This document shows, in pieces, positions 2,140 through 19,729 of a stretch of 47,934 nucleotides of DNA. Below the pieces are notes generated by a model. That model worked only from the letters and a program-made list of their open reading frames with translations. It was not told the origin of the DNA and did no database searches. This DNA comes from an uncultured bacterium (lineage in GTDB: Bacteria; Krumholzibacteriota; Krumholzibacteriia; Krumholzibacteriales; CAZTHK01): NCBI GenBank assembly GCA_964613215.1, contig CAZTHK010000026.1:1-47934 (forward strand), written 5' to 3'. Both the position numbers and the translations under genes were made by a program. The first letter of the stretch is position 1, and each line of letters begins with the position of its first letter.

Positions 2140-4245
2140 ATGAATATTATCAAAGTTCCCGCTGCAGTTATCCTGTTAATTATAATCACATGCTGTCCTG
2201 TAGCCTCAGGAGCAGGTGAGGAGAGCCATCAGACACTTTCACCGGAGGATGTCTTTAATCTTAAAATCTGCTATCAGGCGGAGATAGGACCCCGGGGCAA
2301 ACTGGTTGCTTACACGGCAAACCGCCAGCGGGAGGCCACCGGTGAGCCGGGCGGATCGTACAGTGAACTTTATCTGGTAACAGTGGAAGACTCGGAGATT
2401 AAACCTTTTGTAACCGGCAAGGTCAATGTCAGCTCACCAAGATTCAGCCCGGATGGATCCAGGATAGCCTTCCTGTCCCGGAGAGAGGGTGATAAGAACA
2501 CCCAGGTGTGGGTAATCCCGGTGGATGGAGGGGAGGCGGTAAAGGTAACCGATTCTCCCACCTCGGTTAAGACATTCCGCTGGCATCCCGGGGGAAACAT
2601 GATTGCATATGTTGCTACCACCGAAGAGAGTGAGAGGGAGAAGGAACTGGAGGAGAAGGGATATGATTTCATCTACTTCGAGGAAAAACTGAAACACCGC
2701 AACATCTATATGAGAGAACTGGATGAATACGGAGGGGTGGGAGAAAGGGTCAGGATAACCGAGGGAGTTACGGTATGGGACTTCCAGTTCGCACACCACG
2801 GCAGAACCATGGCAGCCGCCATCTCGCCCAAGAACCTGGTGGACCATTACTATATGTTCAAGAAACTCTATCTGGTAGATCTGGACAAAAAGGAAATCAC
2901 CAGGCTGACCGATAATGAGGGCAAACTGGGCAACTTCGCATTCAGCCCGGATGATTCCAGAATTGTATTCGCAGCCGCCAGGGAGAGGAAGGATCACCAT
3001 GTCAGCCAGGCATTCGTCATAGACGTGGATGGTGATAACCTCCGGAACCTCACCCCTCCTGATTTTCGCGGCCATGTCCTGTGGGTGGGATGGAAAGACA
3101 ACGACGAGATCGTGTATCGATCAGCAGAGGAGGTATGGTCAACCCTCAGCACCGTTGACGCGGAGGGTGGGGAAAGGGAAGTAATACTGCACTCCGGGGA
3201 AAATGGAGTAATCTTCAGAAATCCCAGCTATACGGATGACTTCGATCATTTCGCCTTCTCCGGCAATACTCCGGACACCCCCGGGGATGTATACTACTGG
3301 GAGGAGGGATGGGACCGGCCCAGGAAGCTGGTAACACTTAATCCCTGGATCTCCCGGCGGAAGCTGGGGCGGCAGAGGGTGATTACATACACCGCCAGGG
3401 ACGGCCTGGAGCTTAAGGGGATGCTGGTCTATCCGGCAGGATATGAAGAGAACAAGCTCTATCCCCTGGTTGTTTCGGTTCACGGGGGTCCCGAGTCCAA
3501 CTACTATAACGGCTGGTTGACCCGTTACTTCAATCCCGCCCAGGTACTGGCAGGGAAGGGATACTTTGTATTTTATCCCAACTACCGGACCAGCAATGGA
3601 TATGGAGTGGATATTGCCCTTCAGGGGTACCACGATGCTGCAGGGAAGGAATTCGATGATATAGCCGACGGCATCGATTATCTCAAGTCTCAGAAGCTGA
3701 TCGATCCCGGGAGAGTGGGACTGGGAGGGGGCTCATACGGTGGTTATGCCTCAGCCTGGTTCGCCTCCTACTATACCGATTATGTCAAGGGGGTATGCAT
3801 GTTCGTGGGGATCAGTGATCTGATCAGCAAGCGCGGTACCACCGACATCCCATACGAGGAACTGTACGTTCACTCCAGGGACAAGCTGGAGGAGATGTGG
3901 GATTTCAGCCTGAAACGCAGCCCCATCTACTATGCCCATCAGAGCAAAACAGCGGTGTTGATACTGGGAGGTACCCGGGATACCAGGGTCAACCCCGCAC
4001 AGAGCCTGGAGTTTTACCGGCGGCTGAAGATGAACAATCACCCCGCTGTAAGGATGGTGCGGTATCCCGGAGAGGGTCACGGAAACAGAAAACAGCCCGG
4101 CAGGATAGATATCCTCTACAGAACCCTGGAATGGTACAACTGGTATGTGAGGGATGGTAACCCCATCGCCGGCCCGAAACCGCCTCTGGATATCAGCGAA
4201 CATTATGGGCTGGATCTCGTAGATAAGAAAGAGGGTGAACAGTAA
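2140..4245 (+). CDS. Secreted S9 family serine peptidase (prolyl oligopeptidase / acylaminoacyl-peptidase type) with N-terminal beta-propeller
   Basis: Signal peptide, TolB/WD40-like propeller repeats (SPRFSPDGSRIAF), catalytic GGSYGGY (GxSxG) and alpha/beta-hydrolase C-terminus. AAGGAG RBS. Confidence 0.85.
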   Translation: MNIIKVPAAVILLIIITCCPVASGAGEESHQTLSPEDVFNLKICYQAEIGPRGKLVAYTANRQREATGEPGGSYSELYLVTVEDSEIKPFVTGKVNVSSPRFSPDGSRIAFLSRREGDKNTQVWVIPVDGGEAVKVTDSPTSVKTFRWHPGGNMIAYVATTEESEREKELEEKGYDFIYFEEKLKHRNIYMRELDEYGGVGERVRITEGVTVWDFQFAHHGRTMAAAISPKNLVDHYYMFKKLYLVDLDKKEITRLTDNEGKLGNFAFSPDDSRIVFAAARERKDHHVSQAFVIDVDGDNLRNLTPPDFRGHVLWVGWKDNDEIVYRSAEEVWSTLSTVDAEGGEREVILHSGENGVIFRNPSYTDDFDHFAFSGNTPDTPGDVYYWEEGWDRPRKLVTLNPWISRRKLGRQRVITYTARDGLELKGMLVYPAGYEENKLYPLVVSVHGGPESNYYNGWLTRYFNPAQVLAGKGYFVFYPNYRTSNGYGVDIALQGYHDAAGKEFDDIADGIDYLKSQKLIDPGRVGLGGGSYGGYASAWFASYYTDYVKGVCMFVGISDLISKRGTTDIPYEELYVHSRDKLEEMWDFSLKRSPIYYAHQSKTAVLILGGTRDTRVNPAQSLEFYRRLKMNNHPAVRMVRYPGEGHGNRKQPGRIDILYRTLEWYNWYVRDGNPIAGPKPPLDISEHYGLDLVDKKEGEQ

Positions 4246-4276
4246 AAACCAGCTTACCGGAAAAGAGAGGTGCCCA

Positions 4277-5509
4277 ATGAAAAAGCTCAGAGGCAGAATC
4301 TCCAGGAGGTCCTTTCTGGGACGCACTGCAGCGGCCTTTATAGGAACCGGATTGGGAATAAGCGGAATTCCCTCCCGGATCAAGGGCGCGGTATCCGGCG
4401 AAGACACTAATCAGGGATCATCTGATGTTTCCCATATAAGGGATTACCGCAAACTGGGGAACACCGGCTGGAATGTCTCGGATATATCATTCGGTAATGC
4501 CGGGATGAAGGATACCAGCACCCTGGAATATGCCATGGAACGGGGAATAAACTACGTGGATACAGCCCGGCAGTACTACGATATGGAAAAGGTGATAGGA
4601 CAGCTGTTCCCCCGGAAGAGGGACCAGCTCTTTATCACCACCAAACTCCTGCCCAACCTGTTTACCGCCGATGCAAAAGCGGAAACCTTCATGAAAGCCA
4701 TAGAGGAGAGCCTGACCAGATTGAACACCGATTACATCGACGGATGCCTGATACATTCGGTGGGGGAAGACCCCGGTAAGCCGGACCGGACCATCATCAG
4801 GAATCAGAACATCTATGAGGCTTTCAGCAAGGCCGGAAATCAGGGCAAGATCAGATTCTGGGGAGCCAGCTCACACGGCCCCCTGATGATTGAGGAATTC
4901 AACTGGCTGATGGATAACACCGAAATAGATATTATTCAACCGGGGATGAATTATCTCGCCAGGGGACTGGAGCCCCTGCTGGCAAAAGCGAGGAAAAAGG
5001 GGATAGCGGTGGTAGCCATGAAGACTCTTTCCACCGCCCGTAAGATAGATTTTTCCCGATACAAGGGGGAGGGAAGAACTGTCAGGCAGGCCCTGCTCAA
5101 GTGGATGCTGGCCCAGCCCAATATAGATACCCTGGCCATCACCATGAGGACCATGGAGGAAATCGATGAGTATGTAGCTGCTTCCGGCAATCCCCGGCTG
5201 AGCCCGGAGGAGTGGAGGTCGCTGGAGAGCTACGGGATGAAGGAGGATAACAATTACTGCAGGCCGGGATGCGGATACTGCCTGGATTCATGCCCTCGGA
5301 AGCTCCCCATAAATGATATCCTGAGATACCAGTTATACTTCGAAAGTTATGGGAAGGAAAAATACGCCATCAGTATGTATTCCAACCTCCCCCCATCCAG
5401 CAAAGCCTCAATCTGCCAGTCATGCAATGGAGTCTGTGAGATCTCATGCCCCTACCATATCAGGATAAGGGAGAAGATGCTGGAGTCTCACCTTGAATTG
5501 ACCGTTTAG
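4277..5509 (+). CDS. Tat-exported aldo/keto reductase with C-terminal 4Fe-4S ferredoxin-like cysteine cluster
   Basis: Twin-arginine motif RRSFLGRTAAAF. AKR fold. C-terminal CRPGCGYCLDSCP ... CQSCNGVCEISCP cysteine motifs. Start set at the ATG at 4277 (RBS AGAGAGG) rather than the upstream ATG at 4235. Confidence 0.8.
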   Translation: MKKLRGRISRRSFLGRTAAAFIGTGLGISGIPSRIKGAVSGEDTNQGSSDVSHIRDYRKLGNTGWNVSDISFGNAGMKDTSTLEYAMERGINYVDTARQYYDMEKVIGQLFPRKRDQLFITTKLLPNLFTADAKAETFMKAIEESLTRLNTDYIDGCLIHSVGEDPGKPDRTIIRNQNIYEAFSKAGNQGKIRFWGASSHGPLMIEEFNWLMDNTEIDIIQPGMNYLARGLEPLLAKARKKGIAVVAMKTLSTARKIDFSRYKGEGRTVRQALLKWMLAQPNIDTLAITMRTMEEIDEYVAASGNPRLSPEEWRSLESYGMKEDNNYCRPGCGYCLDSCPRKLPINDILRYQLYFESYGKEKYAISMYSNLPPSSKASICQSCNGVCEISCPYHIRIREKMLESHLELTV

Positions 5510-8725: not shown

Positions 8726-10447
8726 CTATATTTTATCCCCCGCCCTATCGGTGAGGTAACGGACAAAACGGTTGTCTTCATCCACCAGAATATTATTAAA
8801 TTTTCCGCCTGTAGTTCCCGCCCAGGTAAATGCCATGACACTGACTTCGTCTCCCCGATGAATATGCCTGCCGGCCGCTCCGGCCACCACAATCTCCCCG
8901 CTTCCCTCTTCACCTTCCCTTACCGTGGTCTCCACCCGGGCACCGTTGGTATTGTCCACAATCAGCACCTTCTCGCCCGGGTTAAGATTACCACACCGCA
9001 TCAGCTCGAGGTCAACGGTGAGGGAATCAAACCCCTCCGGATCCACTCCGGTAATGGTTGCCTTGTGAATCTTTGTCTTGATAAGAAGTCTTTCCTGCAT
9101 ATCTGATTTGACTAATCTATAATTACCCGGGGAGTCCTGCGGAATATCATCTACCCTGGCAAAACTGACCCTGAAGTCCTCTCCACAATTTCTTGTTATC
9201 CTGGTTTCTATCAATTCCGAATACTCATCCCTCCATTCATCATCCGTTACCAGTTTTAATATTATACCATTGCTGTCCCGCTGTTCAATCTGAAAATTTT
9301 CTACCCCCGGGATACCGTTGAGGAGACGGGGCCACAGAAAAGAACCTATCTTCCCGCCATCCGGTGTTACCACCCTGTCCAGGGAAGGGCCCTGTATGCT
9401 GTGAAGCAGGGGGAAACCTCTTCCGCAGGAACAGGTTCGTCCGGCGGGTATTGCAAAGTCTCCGGTGCGGTACCGGATAAAGGGCATATAACGGTTGGTC
9501 AGGTCGGTAACTACCAACTCTCCCGCCTCGCCACTACCCGCCGGTCTCCCGTTTTGATGAATTACCTCCACCAGGAATAGGTCGCTGAACAGGTGAAGAC
9601 CTTCATGCTCCTCACATTCCTGGGCCAGATAGGAGAATTCCCTGCAGCCATACCTTTCGTAGGCAGGACATCCAAAGACCCCCTCAATAATATTCCTCTG
9701 ACCGGGATACAGCTTTTCCCCACCGGTGATCACTGATCGGGGATTGCCCACTTCCAGTGAATTTATCCTGATGAAATCAGCAAACATTTCCAGTGCAGAG
9801 GGATAACCAGAAATGTACCCGGGCTTAAGCCTTTTCAAGGCGGAAGCATACTTGCTCATGGAATGTTCAGACATATCCAGCGCAGAGAATGCAAATATGT
9901 TATTCAGATAATTTTTCAGCCACCTGCTGATACGCTCTCCTCCCGGTTCATCCGGAGGCAGCCCCCACAACTTGAACTCTCTATCCCCCAGATCCATACC
10001 AGCCCATCTATCCGCTCTCAGCATGCTGGCCCGCTTCAGGGGGGAGGCACTACTATCATAGTAAAAACGCAATGGTTTCCCGGTGGTTCCGGCAGTCCTG
10101 GAGGGATGACCCCTCCTGAAGGGATCGGTGGAAATCATACTGTTTCCATACCTCCGGATCCTCTCCCTGGTTAAAAACGGAATCTCAGCTAAATCAGAAT
10201 AGCTGTTGATATTCTTCACCCGGATTCCATGTTCCCTGAACAGTTTCCGGTAGTAGGGGACATGCCTGGTCGCTTCTTTCAGCAGCTTCTCCAGCTTTCG
10301 CCATTTTATTTCTTCCAGCCGGGAAGGCTCCAGCCACTGATTGCGCTCCAGAGTGTCCAGATAGCCGAGCAGCTGGTCATTTCTTAATCCCCGGTAAAGG
10401 GGATAGATAACATTTCTTACCAGGGAAGGGTGCAGCGGAGGTAGCAT
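8726..10447 (-). CDS. PaaK/CapK-family adenylate-forming ligase fused to a C-terminal PanD-like (aspartate decarboxylase fold) domain
   Basis: N-terminal ~450 aa carry the phenylacetate-CoA ligase / F390-synthetase family P-loop TAGTTGKP. C-terminal ~120 aa (KIHKATITGVDPEGFDSLTVD ... NGARVETTVREGEEGSGE ... AGAAGRH) align gap-free with PanD, at roughly 50% identity to the neighbouring stand-alone PanD. Single uninterrupted ORF. Confidence 0.75.
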   Translation of the reverse strand: MLPPLHPSLVRNVIYPLYRGLRNDQLLGYLDTLERNQWLEPSRLEEIKWRKLEKLLKEATRHVPYYRKLFREHGIRVKNINSYSDLAEIPFLTRERIRRYGNSMISTDPFRRGHPSRTAGTTGKPLRFYYDSSASPLKRASMLRADRWAGMDLGDREFKLWGLPPDEPGGERISRWLKNYLNNIFAFSALDMSEHSMSKYASALKRLKPGYISGYPSALEMFADFIRINSLEVGNPRSVITGGEKLYPGQRNIIEGVFGCPAYERYGCREFSYLAQECEEHEGLHLFSDLFLVEVIHQNGRPAGSGEAGELVVTDLTNRYMPFIRYRTGDFAIPAGRTCSCGRGFPLLHSIQGPSLDRVVTPDGGKIGSFLWPRLLNGIPGVENFQIEQRDSNGIILKLVTDDEWRDEYSELIETRITRNCGEDFRVSFARVDDIPQDSPGNYRLVKSDMQERLLIKTKIHKATITGVDPEGFDSLTVDLELMRCGNLNPGEKVLIVDNTNGARVETTVREGEEGSGEIVVAGAAGRHIHRGDEVSVMAFTWAGTTGGKFNNILVDEDNRFVRYLTDRAGDKI

Positions 10448-12754: not shown

Positions 12755-13251
12755 AACATACCTCCTTGGAAAACTCTTATTATTGGTTTCAATGAATAAA
12801 TAGCAGAAAACCAGTAGATCCTTGTATCACCTCCCTTTCTGGAAGAATATCAGCACACCTCATCCAAATCTTCCCCCCCGTTAATGCTCAAAACCACCTG
12901 CTGCTATCCGATACCTGATATATTCGTTTGCAATCCTGAAAACCTTTATCAACTTCTCAGCGGAAAACAATATTTATGCTGATGCCAGAAAACTGCCATA
13001 ATGGTGTTCCGCCTTCGATATAACCTTCACTTCAGTTCTACACCCGGTTTTCCCGCCTTAATCTCAGACCAGTGAAGTTTATCCGGCAATACTAGCAATA
13101 ATTGTGACACAATCAACCATTTATTGTAATGAAAAAATAGCAATTTTGGCATCACCTTTGCTCGATGGATTCATGATACCATTATCAACAGGCAGCACCG
13201 GCGTATTGCCGGAAAAGCATATAAAAATTGTTCTTATAACCGGAGGCCATT

Positions 13252-14400
13252 ATGTCTCAATTTATGGAAGTACTGGAATGGTTTGATGAAACAGGAGAAG
13301 AAATCGTTCACAGGATACCGCCGGAGGGATCGGCGGAAATAAAGATGGGAGCCCAGCTGGTGGTCCGGGACAACCAGAGCGCGGTCTTTTTCAAGGACGG
13401 CAGGGGACTGGATGTATTTGGATCGGGACGGCATACCCTTACCACCAGAAACCTTCCCATGCTTACCAAGGCTCTCTCCCTGCCCTGGGGATTCAAGAGC
13501 CCCTTCAGGGCGGAAGCATACTTCGTTAATATGAAAACATTCCTCAATCAGAAATGGGGAACCAAGGATCCGGTGGCCTTCAAGGACAGCAAACTGGGTC
13601 TGGTAAGACTCCGTGCATTCGGAGTATATACCTTCAAGATAGTCCAGCCGGTGCTGTTTATCAATTCGGTGGTGGGTACCCAGGGGGTCTACCGCAGTGA
13701 AATGATCGACAACTATCTCAGGGATGTTATCGTAGCCAGGATAAATGACCTGTTCGGAGAACAGCTGGATACCATATTCGATCTTCCCCGGTACTATGAT
13801 GAACTGGCGGTGGACATCAAGAACAGACTGGACAGCAATTTCTCCAAGTATGGAATGGAACTGATAGATTTCTTTATCAACTCCATCACCCCTCCCCCGG
13901 AGGTTCAGAAGATGATAGATGAACGCAGCGGTCTTCAGGCGGTGGGAAATCTGGACAGCTTCTTCAAGTTCAAGGCGGCCAAAGCGATGGGAGATGCCGC
14001 TTCCGGTACTGGCGGGGGAGCCGCCGGCGGGGCGGCTGCAGGGGGAATGGGTGTAGGAGTAGGAGCCGGCCTGGGAATGATGATACCGGGTATGCTGGCC
14101 AGGAATGTTCAGGGAAACTCCTCATCCACCGGAACGGCTGATATGCTCCAGTGCCACCGGTGTCACAACGAAGTATCCGCCGATTCCAGATTCTGTCCCA
14201 GATGCGGAGCACAGCTGGTAATCATGAACAGATGCCCGGAGTGCCAGACAGAATTGCCGGCGGAGGCGAAGTTCTGCTCCAGCTGCGGAAAGCATCTTAC
14301 CGATTCCACCATCTGTCCCCACTGCGGCGCCAAGCTTCCTCCGGGAACAAAATTCTGTACCGACTGCGGAGAGAAGACAGAGGGGAAAGATGAAAGTTAG
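13252..14400 (+). CDS. SPFH/band-7 family protein (YdjI / virion-core-protein type) with Gly-rich linker and three C-terminal zinc-ribbon motifs
   Basis: N-terminal Band_7_1-like domain, GGGAAGGAAAGG linker, [19 protein letters not shown] / [19 protein letters not shown] / [27 protein letters not shown]. Confidence 0.8.
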
Positions 14401-15085
14401 ATGCAACCTTTGCGGAGCTCCCAACACAATTCACCCCGGACAGAAGATGCTGTTCTGCGAATTCTGTGGTTCCGCCGTCGCAATTTCTGATCTCCGAGGT
14501 CCTGAGCATCTTATCCTGCCGCATCAGAGGAACGATCAGATGGCCCGGGAGATGTTAATATCTCATCTTAAATCCAGACGCCGGAAACCGCCCTCCCGGA
14601 TCGAGGCAGATTTCTCTTACCTGCCCTTTTACATGGAGGAGGGAGATGGAACGATCAATCCCCTGGCGGCTGCCAATCCGGGGATGGAAATAATCCCCCC
14701 TTATCCCCCTGCCGGAGATTACAGATTCTTTGAACCTTCCATGGCGGATGAGCAGGAAATCCTGCCCGCCCAAGGGAACAAACCTGAGGCAAGATACCTG
14801 CTTCATCTACCCGTCTATACCCTGAAATATTCAGTTTCCGGGGTAGAACAAACAGCGACGGTAGTGGGTGAAAGCTGGCAGGTGCTGATGGACGAGCTGC
14901 CCCCCCGGAAGGATTTATCGGTAAACAGGATAAACTTTCTGGCAGCAGCTGCGCTTTTCATCCTGTTTCTGTTTGCGGGAAAAATCTCACCAAACATTAC
15001 CGGCCGTACCGCTATCATTGGAACAGCTTCACTAACCGTATTCCTCCTTTATAAAATGCGGGAAAGGCTGGTGAAGAAGGTATGA
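14390..15085 (+). CDS. Zinc-ribbon membrane protein, paralog 1 of 3
   Basis: CNLCGA ... CEFCGS zinc ribbon, SYLPFYMEE motif, C-terminal TM helix. 11-nt overlap with the upstream gene. Confidence 0.55.
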
Positions 15086-16293
15086 GCGCCCCCGGCAAAA
15101 ATCAGCACAATCCCGGAGCAGGAAACCCTCCAGCCGTACAGCAGAGTGGCATGCCGGGGATGGAGGGACCACCGGCCACTTATTCCGGCAGCCATACCGG
15201 CGAAAAAATTATGAATTCATCACCACATTCCCGGGTCAGCCAGTCCGGGAGGCCAGGTTACGGAGAAACAGATTCTGGGGTCCCGGATGAAGAAGACCGG
15301 GGAAAACCGTCAGGGCGGGAAGCCGGGGAAAGTTTTGGTATATCCTGTCCTCTCTGTGGAGGTTCCCTGAGGGCTCATCAGGGTGAGAAGAGTATCACCT
15401 GCGGCTACTGCGATTCCTCCCTCTACATCCAGAATCCCCCCGGAGTTAAAAGCTTTATGACCGAACCGGCGATCTCCCCGGGAAGAGCGAAACTCAACAC
15501 TCTTCACTATCTCCGGGACAACACCTCCGGGCGGGTGAAGGCCCGGCACACCTCCATCATGGAGGTACAGCTGCTTCACGTTCCCTTCTGGAGGATCACA
15601 GGAAGACTGGTAGGGTGGGTATGCGGAGACAGAGTCAAGATGATAGAAAGAGAAATTCCCACCTCCAACCCTCACTCCGCCAGTACCATCAAGAAGGTTA
15701 CCGAGGAGAGGAAACCGTATTCCAGGCTGGTTCATAAAAATATCCACTGGAGTACTCCTGCCTGTACCCTGCCCTACCTGGGCCTTCAGGGAATCTCCAT
15801 GAAGACAAAATTCCTGGAATGGGAGATCTTCTCTCACCGGTTCAAAAAGAATCATACCTTCGCCCTTCCCATGAAGAGTGCCTCCCACGCCATTTCCAGA
15901 GCCTCCAGATACTTTTCTCATCTGGCCACCCCACCAAAAGCCACCGTGCATGCCAGAAGATTCCATCTGTTCAACAGCGAGATGGCCCTTTACTACTATC
16001 CGGTTTACTTCATCCGTTACCGGCACGGCAGGAGGGTCTACTCAGTTACCCTGGATGGCCGGGATGGATATGTTATCCGGGGTGATTACCCGGTCAGAAA
16101 GAGTATTAACTCCAGAAACATATTCTTCCTCCCGGCACTGGCGGCATGGATGGCCTGCACCTGGTTCCCCCTGATAATAATTTCGCTGGTTTCCCTGTAC
16201 ATATATGACCTGATCCGGGGAGAGGGATCACCCCTGCCCCATAACTGGTTAATGGGATGGTTGAGAGGATGGTTGGGGGGTGAATGGAAATGA
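15082..16293 (+). CDS. Zinc-ribbon membrane protein, paralog 2 of 3
   Basis: CPLCGG ... CGYCDS ribbon, LHVPFWRITG motif, C-terminal TM helices. ATGA overlap with the upstream gene. The N-terminal 80 aa are low-complexity and Pro/Gly-rich. Confidence 0.55.
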   Translation: MSAPGKNQHNPGAGNPPAVQQSGMPGMEGPPATYSGSHTGEKIMNSSPHSRVSQSGRPGYGETDSGVPDEEDRGKPSGREAGESFGISCPLCGGSLRAHQGEKSITCGYCDSSLYIQNPPGVKSFMTEPAISPGRAKLNTLHYLRDNTSGRVKARHTSIMEVQLLHVPFWRITGRLVGWVCGDRVKMIEREIPTSNPHSASTIKKVTEERKPYSRLVHKNIHWSTPACTLPYLGLQGISMKTKFLEWEIFSHRFKKNHTFALPMKSASHAISRASRYFSHLATPPKATVHARRFHLFNSEMALYYYPVYFIRYRHGRRVYSVTLDGRDGYVIRGDYPVRKSINSRNIFFLPALAAWMACTWFPLIIISLVSLYIYDLIRGEGSPLPHNWLMGWLRGWLGGEWK

Positions 16294-17132
16294 ATGAGGG
16301 TTTTGTAATAAAACCGTTGATCTGCGACTACTGCGGTTCTCAACTGCCGGTTATGGATGAACTGGCAATCTTCAGGTGCCCGGTCTGCTATCAGCAGTGG
16401 CTTCTGAGCGGGGAGGAATTAAAACCAATCCGGACCTGCCGGGTACCGGAGGATACCGGAAATAAAAACAGCCTGCTTTATCTCCCCTTCTGGGTGATCG
16501 AGATCGACAGGGATGACCTGGCGAAAAAGATAAAAGAGTGTACCTCTGCAAACCAACAGATCAAACGGACCATTGCCTCCACAGAGCTTTCCGGGGATGG
16601 CCTGGATACGGACGGCATTACCGGTCTTCCCGGTCAGACAAGCCCGGCGGCGGAGAGGGTGAAATTTATCAGCAATGCCGCCGGTGCGGTCAGGACTCCC
16701 CATCCCCATCAGATCAGGAAGATAATTAATAATATAGCTTCCCGGGAGAGCTTCAATATCTACGTGCCAGCCTTCCATTCCAGAAACACCTACACCTACA
16801 TCAAGGTGGGCAGGCTGATGACCAGCCGGCAGCCTTACTACCAGGTAACCGGCGCTTTTCCCCCCACCAGCCGTACCCTCTGTGTTCTTCAGCCTGAGGA
16901 ATCAATCCCCCTGCTCGATTTCATCTTCATATCCACACTCCCGGAGGAGGTTCAGGCGTGCGGGGATTTTATCAGCGGGATAAAGGTTAAACCAACCTCT
17001 CCCCCCAGACTGGTGGAATTCCCCTATCTGGAGAAGGGCGCCTATCTGAAGAGTATAATCGGCAATTTCCAGATATCCAACCGGCTGGTAGAAAACCGGC
17101 CTGCAACTGCTGGATCCGGACCCGGATTATAA
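16284..17132 (+). CDS. Zinc-ribbon protein, paralog 3 of 3
   Basis: CDYCGS ... CPVCYQ ribbon, LYLPFWVIE motif. 10-nt overlap with the upstream gene. Confidence 0.55.
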   Translation: MEMNEGFVIKPLICDYCGSQLPVMDELAIFRCPVCYQQWLLSGEELKPIRTCRVPEDTGNKNSLLYLPFWVIEIDRDDLAKKIKECTSANQQIKRTIASTELSGDGLDTDGITGLPGQTSPAAERVKFISNAAGAVRTPHPHQIRKIINNIASRESFNIYVPAFHSRNTYTYIKVGRLMTSRQPYYQVTGAFPPTSRTLCVLQPEESIPLLDFIFISTLPEEVQACGDFISGIKVKPTSPPRLVEFPYLEKGAYLKSIIGNFQISNRLVENRPATAGSGPGL

Positions 17133-17440: not shown

Positions 17441-18760
17441 ATGAACGATCAATCGGAACTGGAAAAACAGAATCGCGAGCTTGCCATACTCAACACCATA
17501 GCCAGGGAGCTGAACAAATCTTTAAGCCTGGAAGAAACTCTCAATATTGCGCTGGCTCAAACTGCGGAATTACTCAATCTGGAGACAGGGTGGATATATC
17601 TGGTAGACCGGGAGAACCAAAAACCCATTCTGATGGCTACCCAGAATCTTCCGCCCGGCATGAAGGAGCATCCGGAAATTATGACCGGATGGTGCCACTG
17701 TCTCAGAAAATTCATGGATAATGATCTCGGGAATTCCACCAACGTGGACATTGAAAACTGCAGCCGGCTCAGTAAGCTGGATAATGGAAAATCCGGATTA
17801 AAGTATCACGCCAGCATTCCCATAATCAGCCAGCATGGCAAGAAACACGGCGTTCTCAATGTAGCCAGCAAGGATTGGAAGAAGCTTACCCCCCGGCAGC
17901 TGAAGATACTTAATACCATAGGTGATCTTCTGGGAATCGCAGTGGAAAGATCCAGGCTGTTTCAGCAGATTCAGAAAAACAAACAGATCCAGATAGATGC
18001 CATGAAAAAGGAGCTTCAGATCGCCCACGATATGCAGATGGCACTGCTTCCGGGGGAACCGCCTCCCCTGGAGGGTGCCGAACTGGCGGGAACCTGTATA
18101 CCGGCAAAAGAGGTGGGTGGAGATTACTACAGCTACCTCTATCTGGGAGAGGGAGATAATCAACTGGCCATAGTTATAGCGGATGTCTCCGGAAAGGGAA
18201 TGCAGGCTGCAACCATAACCCTTCGCTTCAATGAGATGCTTCGTTACGAAGCCAGGGGATTGACCAATCCCACAGAGATCCTGAAAGGCCTGGACAGTTC
18301 AATCGGCAGGAGCACTCCCCTGGAGATGTTTATCACCGCCGGAATTGCCGTACTGGATACCAACAGCATGAACATCAGCATAGCCAGCGCAGCCAACCCG
18401 GTGATACATCATTACTGCCGCAAGGATGATGAAGTAAGGGCTCTGGAGGTCAATGGCCTGCCCCTGGGACTTCCCGGAGAGGTGGAGGTGGAAGAACCCT
18501 TCCGGGAAATGACCCTGCAGCCGGGAGAGGGGGATATACTGGTTTTTGCCTCTGATGGAGTGGAAGAGGCCCGTAATGCAGGAGGCTCATTTTACGGGGG
18601 GAAACGCCTATCCCGGATTATCCGGCATCATGCCACCGGGGGGGAAAGTTCAGAGCAGATAAGAGATGGAATTGTGAACGATGTCCACAGGTTCATGGAC
18701 ACCGCCTCACAAACCGACGATATCACCGTGGTGGTGCTGAAGGTTCTGGAGAAGGAATAG
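17441..18760 (+). CDS. GAF-domain-containing PP2C-family (SpoIIE/RsbU-like) serine phosphatase
   Basis: N-terminal GAF domain, then the PP2C metal-binding block AKEVGGDYYSY ... IADVSGKGMQAA and a C-terminal DDIT motif. Confidence 0.8.
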   Translation: MNDQSELEKQNRELAILNTIARELNKSLSLEETLNIALAQTAELLNLETGWIYLVDRENQKPILMATQNLPPGMKEHPEIMTGWCHCLRKFMDNDLGNSTNVDIENCSRLSKLDNGKSGLKYHASIPIISQHGKKHGVLNVASKDWKKLTPRQLKILNTIGDLLGIAVERSRLFQQIQKNKQIQIDAMKKELQIAHDMQMALLPGEPPPLEGAELAGTCIPAKEVGGDYYSYLYLGEGDNQLAIVIADVSGKGMQAATITLRFNEMLRYEARGLTNPTEILKGLDSSIGRSTPLEMFITAGIAVLDTNSMNISIASAANPVIHHYCRKDDEVRALEVNGLPLGLPGEVEVEEPFREMTLQPGEGDILVFASDGVEEARNAGGSFYGGKRLSRIIRHHATGGESSEQIRDGIVNDVHRFMDTASQTDDITVVVLKVLEKE

Positions 18761-18847
18761 AACAGGAAATATAAATTCTGGCGGTAGCGGCTCCGGAACA
18801 AGGGGGCGCTTGCTTCAACTGTATTTTTGAAGAGAGGGGGACTATCC

Positions 18848-19729
18848 GTGGAAGGATATCTGGAAGTGGTAAAGGCATGGCTGCTCACCAGCGGCATCCA
18901 GATTGTGGTCATCCTGGTGGGAGCATTTATAGTAATCAGGGTTCTGAGAATACTTATCAATAAATACAGGGAAAAAATGACCTCCGCTGAAAAAATATCG
19001 GCAGAACGTTCAAAGCGGCTGGAGACCCTTTCCGGTATAATCGAGACCACTATAACGGTGGTAGTACTGATCGCGGCTCTGTTGATGGTGTTGAAGGAGG
19101 CGGGCATAGAAATAGCCCCCCTGCTGGCCGGCGCCGGGATAGTAGGCCTGGCGGTAGGCTTCGGAGCACAGAGCCTGGTCAAGGATGTAATCAGCGGCTT
19201 TTTCATCCTGCTGGAGAACCACATGAATGTGGGTGATGTGGTCCGGATAGCAGGGGAGGCCGGGCTGGTGGAATCGATAAACCTGAGAATAACCACCCTG
19301 CGAGACCTGGAGGGGAAGGTTCATGTCATCCCCAACGGCGAGATCAAGGTGGTAACCAATTTTACCAGGGAATGGTCCCGGGCCCTCCTGGAGATCGGAG
19401 TGGCCTATAAGGAGGATGTGGACAGGGTGATAGAGGTGCTCAAGGAGGTGGGGGAGGAATTACGCCAGGATGAGAAATTCGCCCCCCTGATACTGGAACC
19501 CATGGAAATACTGGGGCTGGACAGTTTCGGAAACTCCTCTGTGAATATCAAGTTAATGTTCAAAACACAACCCATCAAGCAGTGGGCGGTGGCCCGGGAA
19601 TACCGCAGGCGGGTCAAGAAGGCCTTCGACCGGGAAAATATCGAGATCCCCTTCCCCCACGTCACCCTCTACATGGGAGAGGGAGAGAATGAAGGGGCAC
19701 TCAAGGTGGATACCAAATCTTCTCAGTAG
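18848..19729 (+). CDS. mscS: Small-conductance mechanosensitive channel (MscS family)
   Basis: Three N-terminal TM helices and an MscS beta-domain. GTG at 18848 preceded by GAGGGGG is the preferred start. The ORF track starts at a TTG at 18827. Confidence 0.8.
   Translation: MEGYLEVVKAWLLTSGIQIVVILVGAFIVIRVLRILINKYREKMTSAEKISAERSKRLETLSGIIETTITVVVLIAALLMVLKEAGIEIAPLLAGAGIVGLAVGFGAQSLVKDVISGFFILLENHMNVGDVVRIAGEAGLVESINLRITTLRDLEGKVHVIPNGEIKVVTNFTREWSRALLEIGVAYKEDVDRVIEVLKEVGEELRQDEKFAPLILEPMEILGLDSFGNSSVNIKLMFKTQPIKQWAVAREYRRRVKKAFDRENIEIPFPHVTLYMGEGENEGALKVDTKSSQ

Follow-up and report, generated by a model that had tools for sequence, protein, structure and literature searches.

A four-gene cassette of Krumholzibacteriota encodes a YdjI-type SPFH protein and three zinc-ribbon partners related to YdjG, with no PspA or TPM gene nearby

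Introduction

How SPFH proteins that carry no membrane anchor of their own reach the membrane, and what role they play there, is poorly understood, and the only such case that has been studied, YdjI (SamI) of Bacillus subtilis, is entangled with PspA and YdjH. In that organism YdjI is soluble and cytosolic unless YdjG and YdjH are present, both of which are needed for its membrane foci, and interactions have been found between YdjG and YdjH and between YdjH and YdjI (PMC8581546). The same question is raised by a cassette of four same-strand (+) open reading frames (ORFs), here called genes 1 to 4, at positions 13252-17132 of a 47,934-nucleotide stretch of DNA from an uncultured bacterium of the Krumholzibacteriota (contig CAZTHK010000026.1; the whole stretch is referred to as the window). 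Gene 1 encodes an SPFH protein and genes 2-4 encode zinc-ribbon proteins, and an earlier note on this DNA, made from its letters alone, had likened the arrangement to the ydjG-ydjH-ydjI module that works with PspA. Is the cassette a further branch of that system, or can an SPFH protein and its YdjG-like partners stand without the rest of it? Judged by homology, the cassette groups with YdjI/YdjG (SamI/SamG) and misses two defining features of PspA-YdjGHI, namely PspA and the TPM domain. We consider it probable that the operon is a self-contained variant of YdjG/YdjI, PspA-less and YdjH-less, in which genes 2-4 provide an adaptor that docks an SPFH oligomer.

Results

Gene 1 encodes a YdjI-type SPFH protein

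Gene 1 matches the Pfam family Band_7_1 (PF13421) with 209 bits against a cutoff of 24 (E=8e-62; coordinates of all cassette features are given in Table 1), and its alignment with YdjI/SamI of B. subtilis runs the full length of the protein at 27% identity (E=4e-30), across the SPFH domain, the linker and the ribbon. No 19-residue window of the protein is hydrophobic enough for a transmembrane helix on the Kyte-Doolittle scale, and no relative in the PDB was found by sequence. It thus shows the architecture of YdjI, that is, no transmembrane segment, a low-complexity linker and C-terminal ribbons, with three ribbons against one in YdjI. A regular-expression search found exactly three CxxC-x(10)-CxxC units, and the Pfam models DZR and Zn_Ribbon_1 each match three stretches of the protein.

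The description of gene 1 in the earlier note, as a YdjI-type SPFH protein with a Gly-rich linker and three ribbons, therefore stands in every part. The triplication is no peculiarity of this genome, since archaeal versions also have three. Among the orthologues of loci L002-L086 the number of ribbons on the SPFH protein varies by lineage, being three in Krumholzibacteria, Thermococci, Hadarchaeota and most Methanoperedens; the proteins of 44 Ignavibacteria loci have none, a few others have one or two, and the three partner genes stay constant. A one-to-one pairing of the gene 1 ribbons with the three partners was considered and rejected as a general rule, since the Ignavibacteria keep the partners next to a ribbon-less SPFH protein.

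Genes 2 and 3 are full-length paralogs, and gene 4 shares their N-terminal module

Pairwise BLASTP comparisons among genes 2-4 were almost uninformative, and profiles were required. A word-indexed protein search gave 38, 43 and 9 homologues for the three families (43 for gene 2), all of them metagenomic and several named Candidatus Krumholzibacteria or Krumholzibacteriota. When compared as families, genes 2 and 3 align with an hhalign probability of 97.6% (E=4.7e-12) over 178 columns; in essence, gene 3 differs from gene 2 by a large insertion and by an additional disordered stretch at its N-terminus. Gene 4 reached 42-55% against the others with narrow alignments, and 96.9% (E=1.6e-10) against gene 3 with alignments built from 80 loci, over 79 columns that comprise the ribbon and the PFW hairpin; the remainder of gene 4 is unrelated to gene 3. 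The three had been called paralogous membrane proteins, which is right for genes 2 and 3, related over their full length, and wrong for gene 4, which shares the ribbon and the PFW hairpin only and is predicted to be soluble. The conserved L-x-[LV]-P-F-[WY] motif that had been noticed in all three is real in its P-F-[WY] core, where P79 is invariant in the PF[YW] motif of the gene 2 family, P168-F169-W170 in the gene 3 family and P66-F67-W68 in the gene 4 family.

In gene 2, a ribbon (C5-C26) comes first, the PF[YW] hairpin lies at about residues 76-82 and an H-L-P-x-Y strand at 139-143, and the C-terminal part holds a hydrophobic helical hairpin, in which hydropathy reaches its maximum of 2.16 (residues 181-199, Kyte-Doolittle). 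Of its ribbon cysteines, C23 and C26 are invariant throughout the family, and C5 and C8 are missing from a single sequence, which is truncated at its N-terminus. Gene 3 had been said to start with its zinc ribbon, but a variable, disordered N-terminus (residues 1-85) comes first, and the ribbon (C89-C110), a core (123-334), a hydrophobic hairpin (344-379) and an amphipathic helix follow. The gene 3 ribbon gave weak matches to RpoP/Rpo12-type ribbons in the PDB. An AlphaFold2 model built on the gene 3 alignment (mean predicted local distance difference test score, pLDDT, 62.9; core 70-90) has the disordered N-terminus, the ribbon, two lobes each made of a helix and a long beta-hairpin, two helices of about 17 residues and the amphipathic helix, and in this model the protein resembles the PepSY folds of YpeB, YpmB and FoxB and the cystatin/NTF2-like folds. 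The likeness to YpeB, YpmB and PepSY-domain proteins lies in this predicted fold, the cystatin/NTF2-like alpha+beta roll; identity is 10-15%, there is no Pfam PepSY match, and the gene 3 domain is preceded by a ribbon and predicted to be cytoplasmic, whereas classical PepSY domains are extracytoplasmic. Both gene 2 and gene 3 proteins are predicted to face the cytoplasm with C-terminal hydrophobic anchors.

Gene 4 is built differently beyond the shared module. Its ribbon (C12-C33) and LPFW hairpin (65-68) are followed by a long helical hairpin (74-131) and then, at the C-terminus, by an alpha/beta domain (139-263) for which no fold match was found in the PDB. The ribbon cysteines are invariant in its family. 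The motif had been placed 40-60 residues after the ribbon in each gene, and in gene 4 this distance is about 30 residues. Likewise, C-terminal transmembrane helices had been ascribed to all three proteins, and hydrophobic hairpins are indeed found at the C-termini of genes 2 and 3 but not in gene 4, whose most hydrophobic 19-residue Kyte-Doolittle window reaches 1.17 and whose AlphaFold2 model has no C-terminal hydrophobic helix. Since orthologues elsewhere are about 200 residues long, we infer that the helical hairpin 74-131 is an extra segment of the Krumholzibacteria version. As a predicted soluble protein, gene 4 is not a typical member of the YdjG family but a relative that has been truncated or has diverged.

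Nothing above threshold was found for genes 2-4 in Pfam, NCBIfam or PADLOC, and PADLOC-DB 2.0 gave no family for any of the four cassette proteins at E<=1. Ten sampled members of the gene 3 family matched no Pfam family save for weak ribbon matches. That the three proteins have no obvious named family accordingly holds for these databases. It had also been conceded that the reading frames might be compositional artefacts without homologues, which is not so, as each gene has dozens of homologues in conserved synteny.

The partners of gene 1 are related to YdjG, and PspA and YdjH have no counterpart

For the comparison with B. subtilis, loci of the pspA-ydjG-ydjH-ydjI (pspA-samGHI) type were recovered from metagenomes with a degenerate pattern taken from a primer of PMC8581546. 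In the recovered Bacillus-type locus Pfam recognises PspA_IM30, a TFIIB-type ribbon (in YdjG), TPM (PF04536, in YdjH) and Band_7_1 (in YdjI). YdjG matched the 40-sequence profile of the gene 3 family with 71.9 bits (E=2.6e-24 as a single target, or about 5e-15 when scaled to a library of 1.8 billion proteins). The match falls into two colinear pieces, of which one comprises the second ribbon of YdjG, a helix and the 'YIPFWMF' hairpin (residues 51-147) and the other 'LLPVWMVSYDY...NGQTGKVVGKPP' and the transmembrane segment (residues 261-337, a YxPxW...G.tG.v pattern). Against the positional profiles of genes 2, 3 and 4 YdjG scored 48.8, 44.2 and 39.0 bits, and on these scores it is an outgroup to the three rather than the orthologue of any single one. 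Genes 2 and 3 are, by this comparison, homologues of YdjG, and gene 4 is one through its N-terminal module. The features of the YdjG family, in which a YpeB-related NTF2/PepSY-like fold has been assigned to the region after the ribbon (PMC11237479), recur here as sequence similarity, an N-terminal ribbon in genes 2-4 and a YpeB-related NTF2/PepSY-like domain, and the C-terminal membrane anchor is found in genes 2 and 3 but not in gene 4.

The cassette and pspA-ydjGHI are therefore alike in that both encode a Band_7_1 SPFH protein with a low-complexity linker and one or more C-terminal ribbons and, in the same operon, a YdjG-family protein made of a ribbon, a PepSY-like domain and a C-terminal membrane segment. 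They differ in gene content, the cassette having neither PspA nor the TPM-domain YdjH and having three YdjG-like genes instead of one, and in gene order, which is reversed, the SPFH gene of the cassette coming first. Moreover, each YdjG-like protein of the cassette carries one ribbon where YdjG has two, its SPFH protein carries three where YdjI has one, and a hydrophobic hairpin in genes 2 and 3 takes the place of the single tail anchor of YdjG. The range differs as well, the cassette being found in archaea and several bacterial phyla and not in Firmicutes alone.

The lack of pspA that had been noticed from the sequence was confirmed in two ways. Neither PspA_IM30 nor TPM was present among the 34 window ORFs scanned with Pfam (30 neighbours and the four cassette genes), and phmmer searches with Bacillus PspA and YdjH found no match in the 48-kb window, in 86 cassette loci or in up to 10 kb on either side of these, a search of homologous loci that had been suggested for pspA. 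The likeness to the ydjG-ydjH-ydjI module thus holds for gene 1 with YdjI and for genes 2 and 3 with YdjG, and fails for YdjH, of which no counterpart was found.

The cassette is conserved as a unit in bacteria and archaea

A HMMER profile search with the gene 3 alignment retrieved 1166 clusters (50% identity) at E<=1e-3, of which 211 at E<=1e-10. The full alignment of the gene 3 family (40 sequences) was too diverse for a search of loci, and a subset of 13 sequences was used to scan one genome per GTDB species, which confirmed 358 loci, 80 of them fetched. All ORFs of 86 loci were then scanned with Krumholzibacteria-only profiles of genes 2, 3 and 4 and with the gene 1 SPFH domain. All four genes occur in the order 1-2-3-4 in 59 of the 86 loci, genes 2-3-4 in that order in another 22, and other partial arrangements in five, so that the triad of genes 2-3-4 is present in 81. 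The four-gene order is kept in Krumholzibacteriota, Ignavibacteria/Chlorobiota, a Bacillota metagenome-assembled genome (MAG), Thermococci, Hadarchaeota and Methanoperedens/ANME-2. In the archaeal and other bacterial loci each position scores best with its own Krumholzibacteria profile, and since gene order is the same as well, the triplication that gave genes 2, 3 and 4 is, on this evidence, older than the spread of the cassette. Flanking genes vary between lineages, which marks the cassette itself as the conserved unit.

An SPFH match upstream of genes 2-3 is lacking in 23 loci, 11 of which lie on truncated contigs; the other 12, which have at least 1.5 kb of upstream sequence, belong to Acidobacteriota, Chloroflexota, Vulcanimicrobiota and two unclassified MAGs. 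Furthermore, of the top 150 profile matches, at least 16 are clusters in which genes 3 and 4 are fused into a single chain. These fusion proteins, of 470-600 residues, consist of a gene-3-like part and a complete gene-4-like part, and most of them have no hydrophobic hairpin. Such natural fusions argue for a physical association of the gene 3 and gene 4 proteins.

Additional genes were seen at some of these loci. In 33 of them, from archaea, the Bacillota MAG and one subgroup of Ignavibacteria, a fifth gene lies immediately upstream of the SPFH gene and encodes an all-helical, coiled-coil protein of about 175 residues with an invariant P-G-x-x-G-Y motif; it is absent from the 48-kb window. We considered whether it might be a hidden PspA/ESCRT-III protein and rejected this, as it has no Pfam or PDB match and an hhalign probability of 0.2% against PspA. 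In one profile match (P0150) a protein-kinase fragment and an AAA_16 domain are fused to a gene-3-like module, and in a Methanoperedens locus an 855-residue gene with protein-kinase (Pkinase) and ORC/CDC6-like parts (L010:13190-15757) lies about 1.5 kb downstream of the cassette. This association with kinases may reflect true signalling or an artefact of gene calling.

Operon layout and neighbourhood

The four genes had been said to overlap at all four junctions, by 11, 4 and 10 nucleotides; the overlaps are there, and the junctions are three. The middle one is an ATGA overlap, and the third depends on where gene 4 begins. Of its two possible starts the ATG at 16290 is more likely than that at 16284, judging from the choice of the gene caller, the orthologue alignment, which begins there, and a better spacing from a G-rich, Shine-Dalgarno-like run (7-15 nucleotides); the junction of genes 3 and 4 would then also be a 4-nucleotide ATGA overlap. 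In three orthologous loci with called genes the same junctions are overlaps or gaps of 1-2 nucleotides, so tight coupling is conserved. A non-coding stretch of about 500 nucleotides (12755-13251) separates the operon from a divergent gene for an outer membrane protein (OMP) beta-barrel, and a spacer of about 300 nucleotides follows the cassette on its 3' side. An antisense ORF (15310-16026, minus strand, 238 residues) lies wholly within gene 3; no homologue supports it, and we attribute it to the composition of the coding strand.

Table 1. Positions of the cassette genes and their parts in the window, and examples of related genes and proteins from other loci.
Feature	Position or identifier	Strand	Length	Description
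GGAGG Shine-Dalgarno-like site	13242..13246	+	5 nt	Lies 5 nt before the gene 1 ATG; read from sequence
Gene 1	13252..14400	+	382 aa	Soluble YdjI/SamI-type SPFH protein (predicted)
Gene 1, SPFH/Band_7_1 domain	13327..13935	+		Residues 26-228, Pfam
Gene 1, Gly/Ala/Met-rich low-complexity linker	13969..14142	+		About residues 240-297; aligns with the YdjI linker
Gene 1, three tandem zinc ribbons	14152..14367	+		C301-C318, C328-C345, C355-C372
Gene 2	14390..15085	+	231 aa	Short YdjG-like paralog
Gene 2, hydrophobic helical hairpin (predicted membrane anchor)	14930..15052	+		About residues 181-221; sequence conserved in the family alignment
Gene 3	15082..16293	+	403 aa	Long YdjG-like paralog
Gene 3, zinc ribbon	15346..15411	+		C89, C92, C107 and C110 invariant in the family
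Gene 3, YpeB/PepSY-like (cystatin/NTF2-like) core	15448..16083	+		Holds the invariant VPFW and YYPVY strands
Gene 3, hydrophobic helical hairpin	16111..16218	+		Two helices of about 17 residues, broken at Pro
Gene 4	16290..17132 or 16284..17132	+	280 aa (from ATG) or 282 aa	Soluble ribbon protein (predicted)
Fifth gene (u1), examples	L007:7614-8123, L009:2436-2966, L023:2069-2599, L019:6594-7322			Also in 29 other loci
Gene 3-gene 4 fusion proteins	P0133, P0135, P0141, P0144, P0168, P0176, P0181, P0184			
Gene 3-gene 4 fusion proteins, continued	P0185, P0189, P0192, P0194, P0197, P0200, P0218, P0227			

In Krumholzibacteria the cassette lies in syntenic chromosomal DNA, with the OMP barrel gene upstream and genes for polysaccharide biosynthesis downstream. 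Directly downstream of it in the window are a GAF-SpoIIE (PP2C) phosphatase (17441-18760, plus strand) and an MscS mechanosensitive channel (18827-19729, plus strand); these two genes are not beside the cassette in the orthologous loci L002, L004 and L005, so their adjacency is not conserved. Two further genes of the window may be mentioned. One (8726-10447, minus strand, 573 residues) joins an AMP-binding/CapK-like part to a C-terminal aspartate-decarboxylase (PanD-like) domain, an unusual fusion that is kept in relatives, where a stand-alone PanD gene adjoins it. The other (4235-5509, plus strand) is an aldo/keto reductase with a C-terminal 4Fe-4S dicluster domain and is also kept in relatives.

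Discussion

In the reading that we favour, gene 1 would encode a soluble, oligomerising SPFH protein, and the zinc-ribbon/PepSY-like proteins of genes 2 and 3 would sit at the cytoplasmic side of the inner membrane, held there by their C-terminal hydrophobic hairpins. Made in fixed proportion through translational coupling, the products of genes 2-4 would most likely come together as a hetero-oligomeric adaptor beneath the membrane, which would recruit the SPFH oligomer to the cytoplasmic face and regulate it there, and the resulting complex could serve as an envelope-stress scaffold that organises or monitors the membrane. Here the recruitment of the SPFH protein by YdjG-like proteins and the function in membrane stress are drawn by analogy from the experiments in B. 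subtilis. Several points weigh against this proposal. The two-hybrid link to YdjI in B. subtilis runs mainly via YdjH, which has no counterpart in the cassette. At 15-17 residues the hydrophobic helices in genes 2 and 3 are short, and their hairpins could therefore be re-entrant rather than membrane-spanning; the model of gene 3 is only moderately confident. Docking of ribbon to ribbon cannot be a general mechanism, given the ribbon-less gene 1 versions of Ignavibacteria, and the 12 loci that keep genes 2-3-4 with no adjacent SPFH gene suggest that the triad may have a function of its own.

That last point leads to another reading, possible but in our judgement unlikely, in which the triad is itself the conserved core, a complex at the membrane that senses or signals and has its own output, and the SPFH protein is an accessory regulator, a 'brake', rather than the cargo. 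It would agree with the presence of the triad in nearly all loci, including those 12, and with what is known of SamI, which is predicted to form a higher-order oligomer and restrains the activity of SamGH, and whose loss gives a phenotype that depends on SamH, is modulated by SamG and has been read as unrestrained SamGH signalling (bioRxiv 10.64898/2026.02.06.704340). However, no recognisable enzymatic or signalling output domain was found in genes 2-4 with Pfam, NCBIfam or PADLOC, and the SPFH gene of the SPFH-less loci may lie elsewhere in those genomes. Moreover, a signalling core of this kind overlaps with an adaptor and does not exclude it.

The cassette could also be considered an ordinary branch of the phage-shock system, its complex recruiting a PspA/ESCRT-III protein encoded elsewhere, as YdjGHI does. 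YdjI is required for PspA foci in B. subtilis (PMC8581546), and links between SPFH proteins and ESCRT-III have been noted in archaea (PMC10936438), both of which would fit. We nevertheless regard this as rather improbable, because PspA was found neither in the window nor around the 86 loci, in the archaeal and Bacillota loci sampled the neighbours are unrelated housekeeping genes, and the coiled-coil gene upstream of the cassette in some lineages is dissimilar to PspA.

An anti-phage defence or conflict system on a mobile island might be suspected from the patchy spread over distant phyla of both Archaea and Bacteria, a pattern suggestive of horizontal transfer, and from the zinc-ribbon and SPFH proteins that some conflict systems do contain, but it is very improbable, with no match in PADLOC, no relatives found in viral contigs, phage records or plasmids, no nuclease, nucleoside triphosphatase or other effector domain in the cassette, and a Krumholzibacteria setting of syntenic envelope and metabolic genes in which no integrase or transposase stands beside it. 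It is equally hard to believe that genes 2-4 are membrane-tethered, stress-released regulators that bind nucleic acids through TFIIB/RpoP-like ribbons, as might be proposed from the Pfam TFIIB match of the first YdjG ribbon, the 'RPC12/RpoP' label of the Joint Genome Institute (JGI) on some gene 3 homologues and the weak PDB matches to Rpo12, since the ribbons of genes 2-4 stay below every Pfam threshold, a four-Cys ribbon is a generic interaction module, and there is neither a helix-turn-helix or other DNA-binding domain nor a protease partner.

The adaptor reading also sets the cassette apart from better-known SPFH systems. With HflK/C-FtsH, QmcA-YbbJ/NfeD and the flotillins FloA/FloT gene 1 probably shares the nature of a large oligomeric membrane scaffold, but these are membrane-anchored, whereas gene 1 has no transmembrane segment or hairpin of its own and its operon has no NfeD or protease partner, and we propose that the adaptor role falls instead to the YdjG-like proteins. 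In archaea, 'Meth_adaptin' ESCRT loci have been described in which an SPFH + coiled-coil + zinc-ribbon protein occurs in a context of membrane remodelling (PMC10936438). The likeness is that of a ribbon-bearing SPFH protein in archaea; Vps4, ESCRT-III and adaptin-appendage proteins, which define those loci, were not found beside any of the sampled archaeal cassettes. We therefore rejected the idea that the archaeal cassettes are Vps4/ESCRT loci of this kind, their sampled neighbours being unrelated.

In the papers located we found no description of the four-gene arrangement, of three YdjG paralogs, of the order with the SPFH gene first, of a presence in archaea or of the gene 3-gene 4 fusions. 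The kind of system is no surprise, and the value of the finding lies in reframing which of the Bacillus parts are ancestral. Because this cassette, with its gene order intact, recurs across many bacteria and archaea, YdjG and YdjI look less like something that Bacillus added to the phage-shock system than like an old membrane module that is complete in itself. It is further quite possible, if short of probable, that an SPFH protein with a YdjG-like adaptor of three members, two anchored in the membrane and one soluble, is an ancient, autonomous sub-membrane machine of Archaea and Bacteria that works without ESCRT-III/PspA, and that PspA-YdjGHI of Bacillus derives from it in simplified form, with PspA and the TPM protein recruited secondarily. 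If this were true, the ribbon-PepSY-like triad would mark out a protein family that is new and uncurated, comprising at least 1166 clusters (50% identity), and SPFH receptors of a new class.

The cassette isolates the YdjI-YdjG relationship in a form that is free of PspA and YdjH and conserved across both prokaryotic domains. The natural fusions of genes 3 and 4 predict contacts between subunits, and a large family that has no Pfam or NCBIfam model could now be defined. For Bacillus, this yields the testable idea that SamG, and not SamH or PspA, may be the ancestral partner of the SPFH protein.

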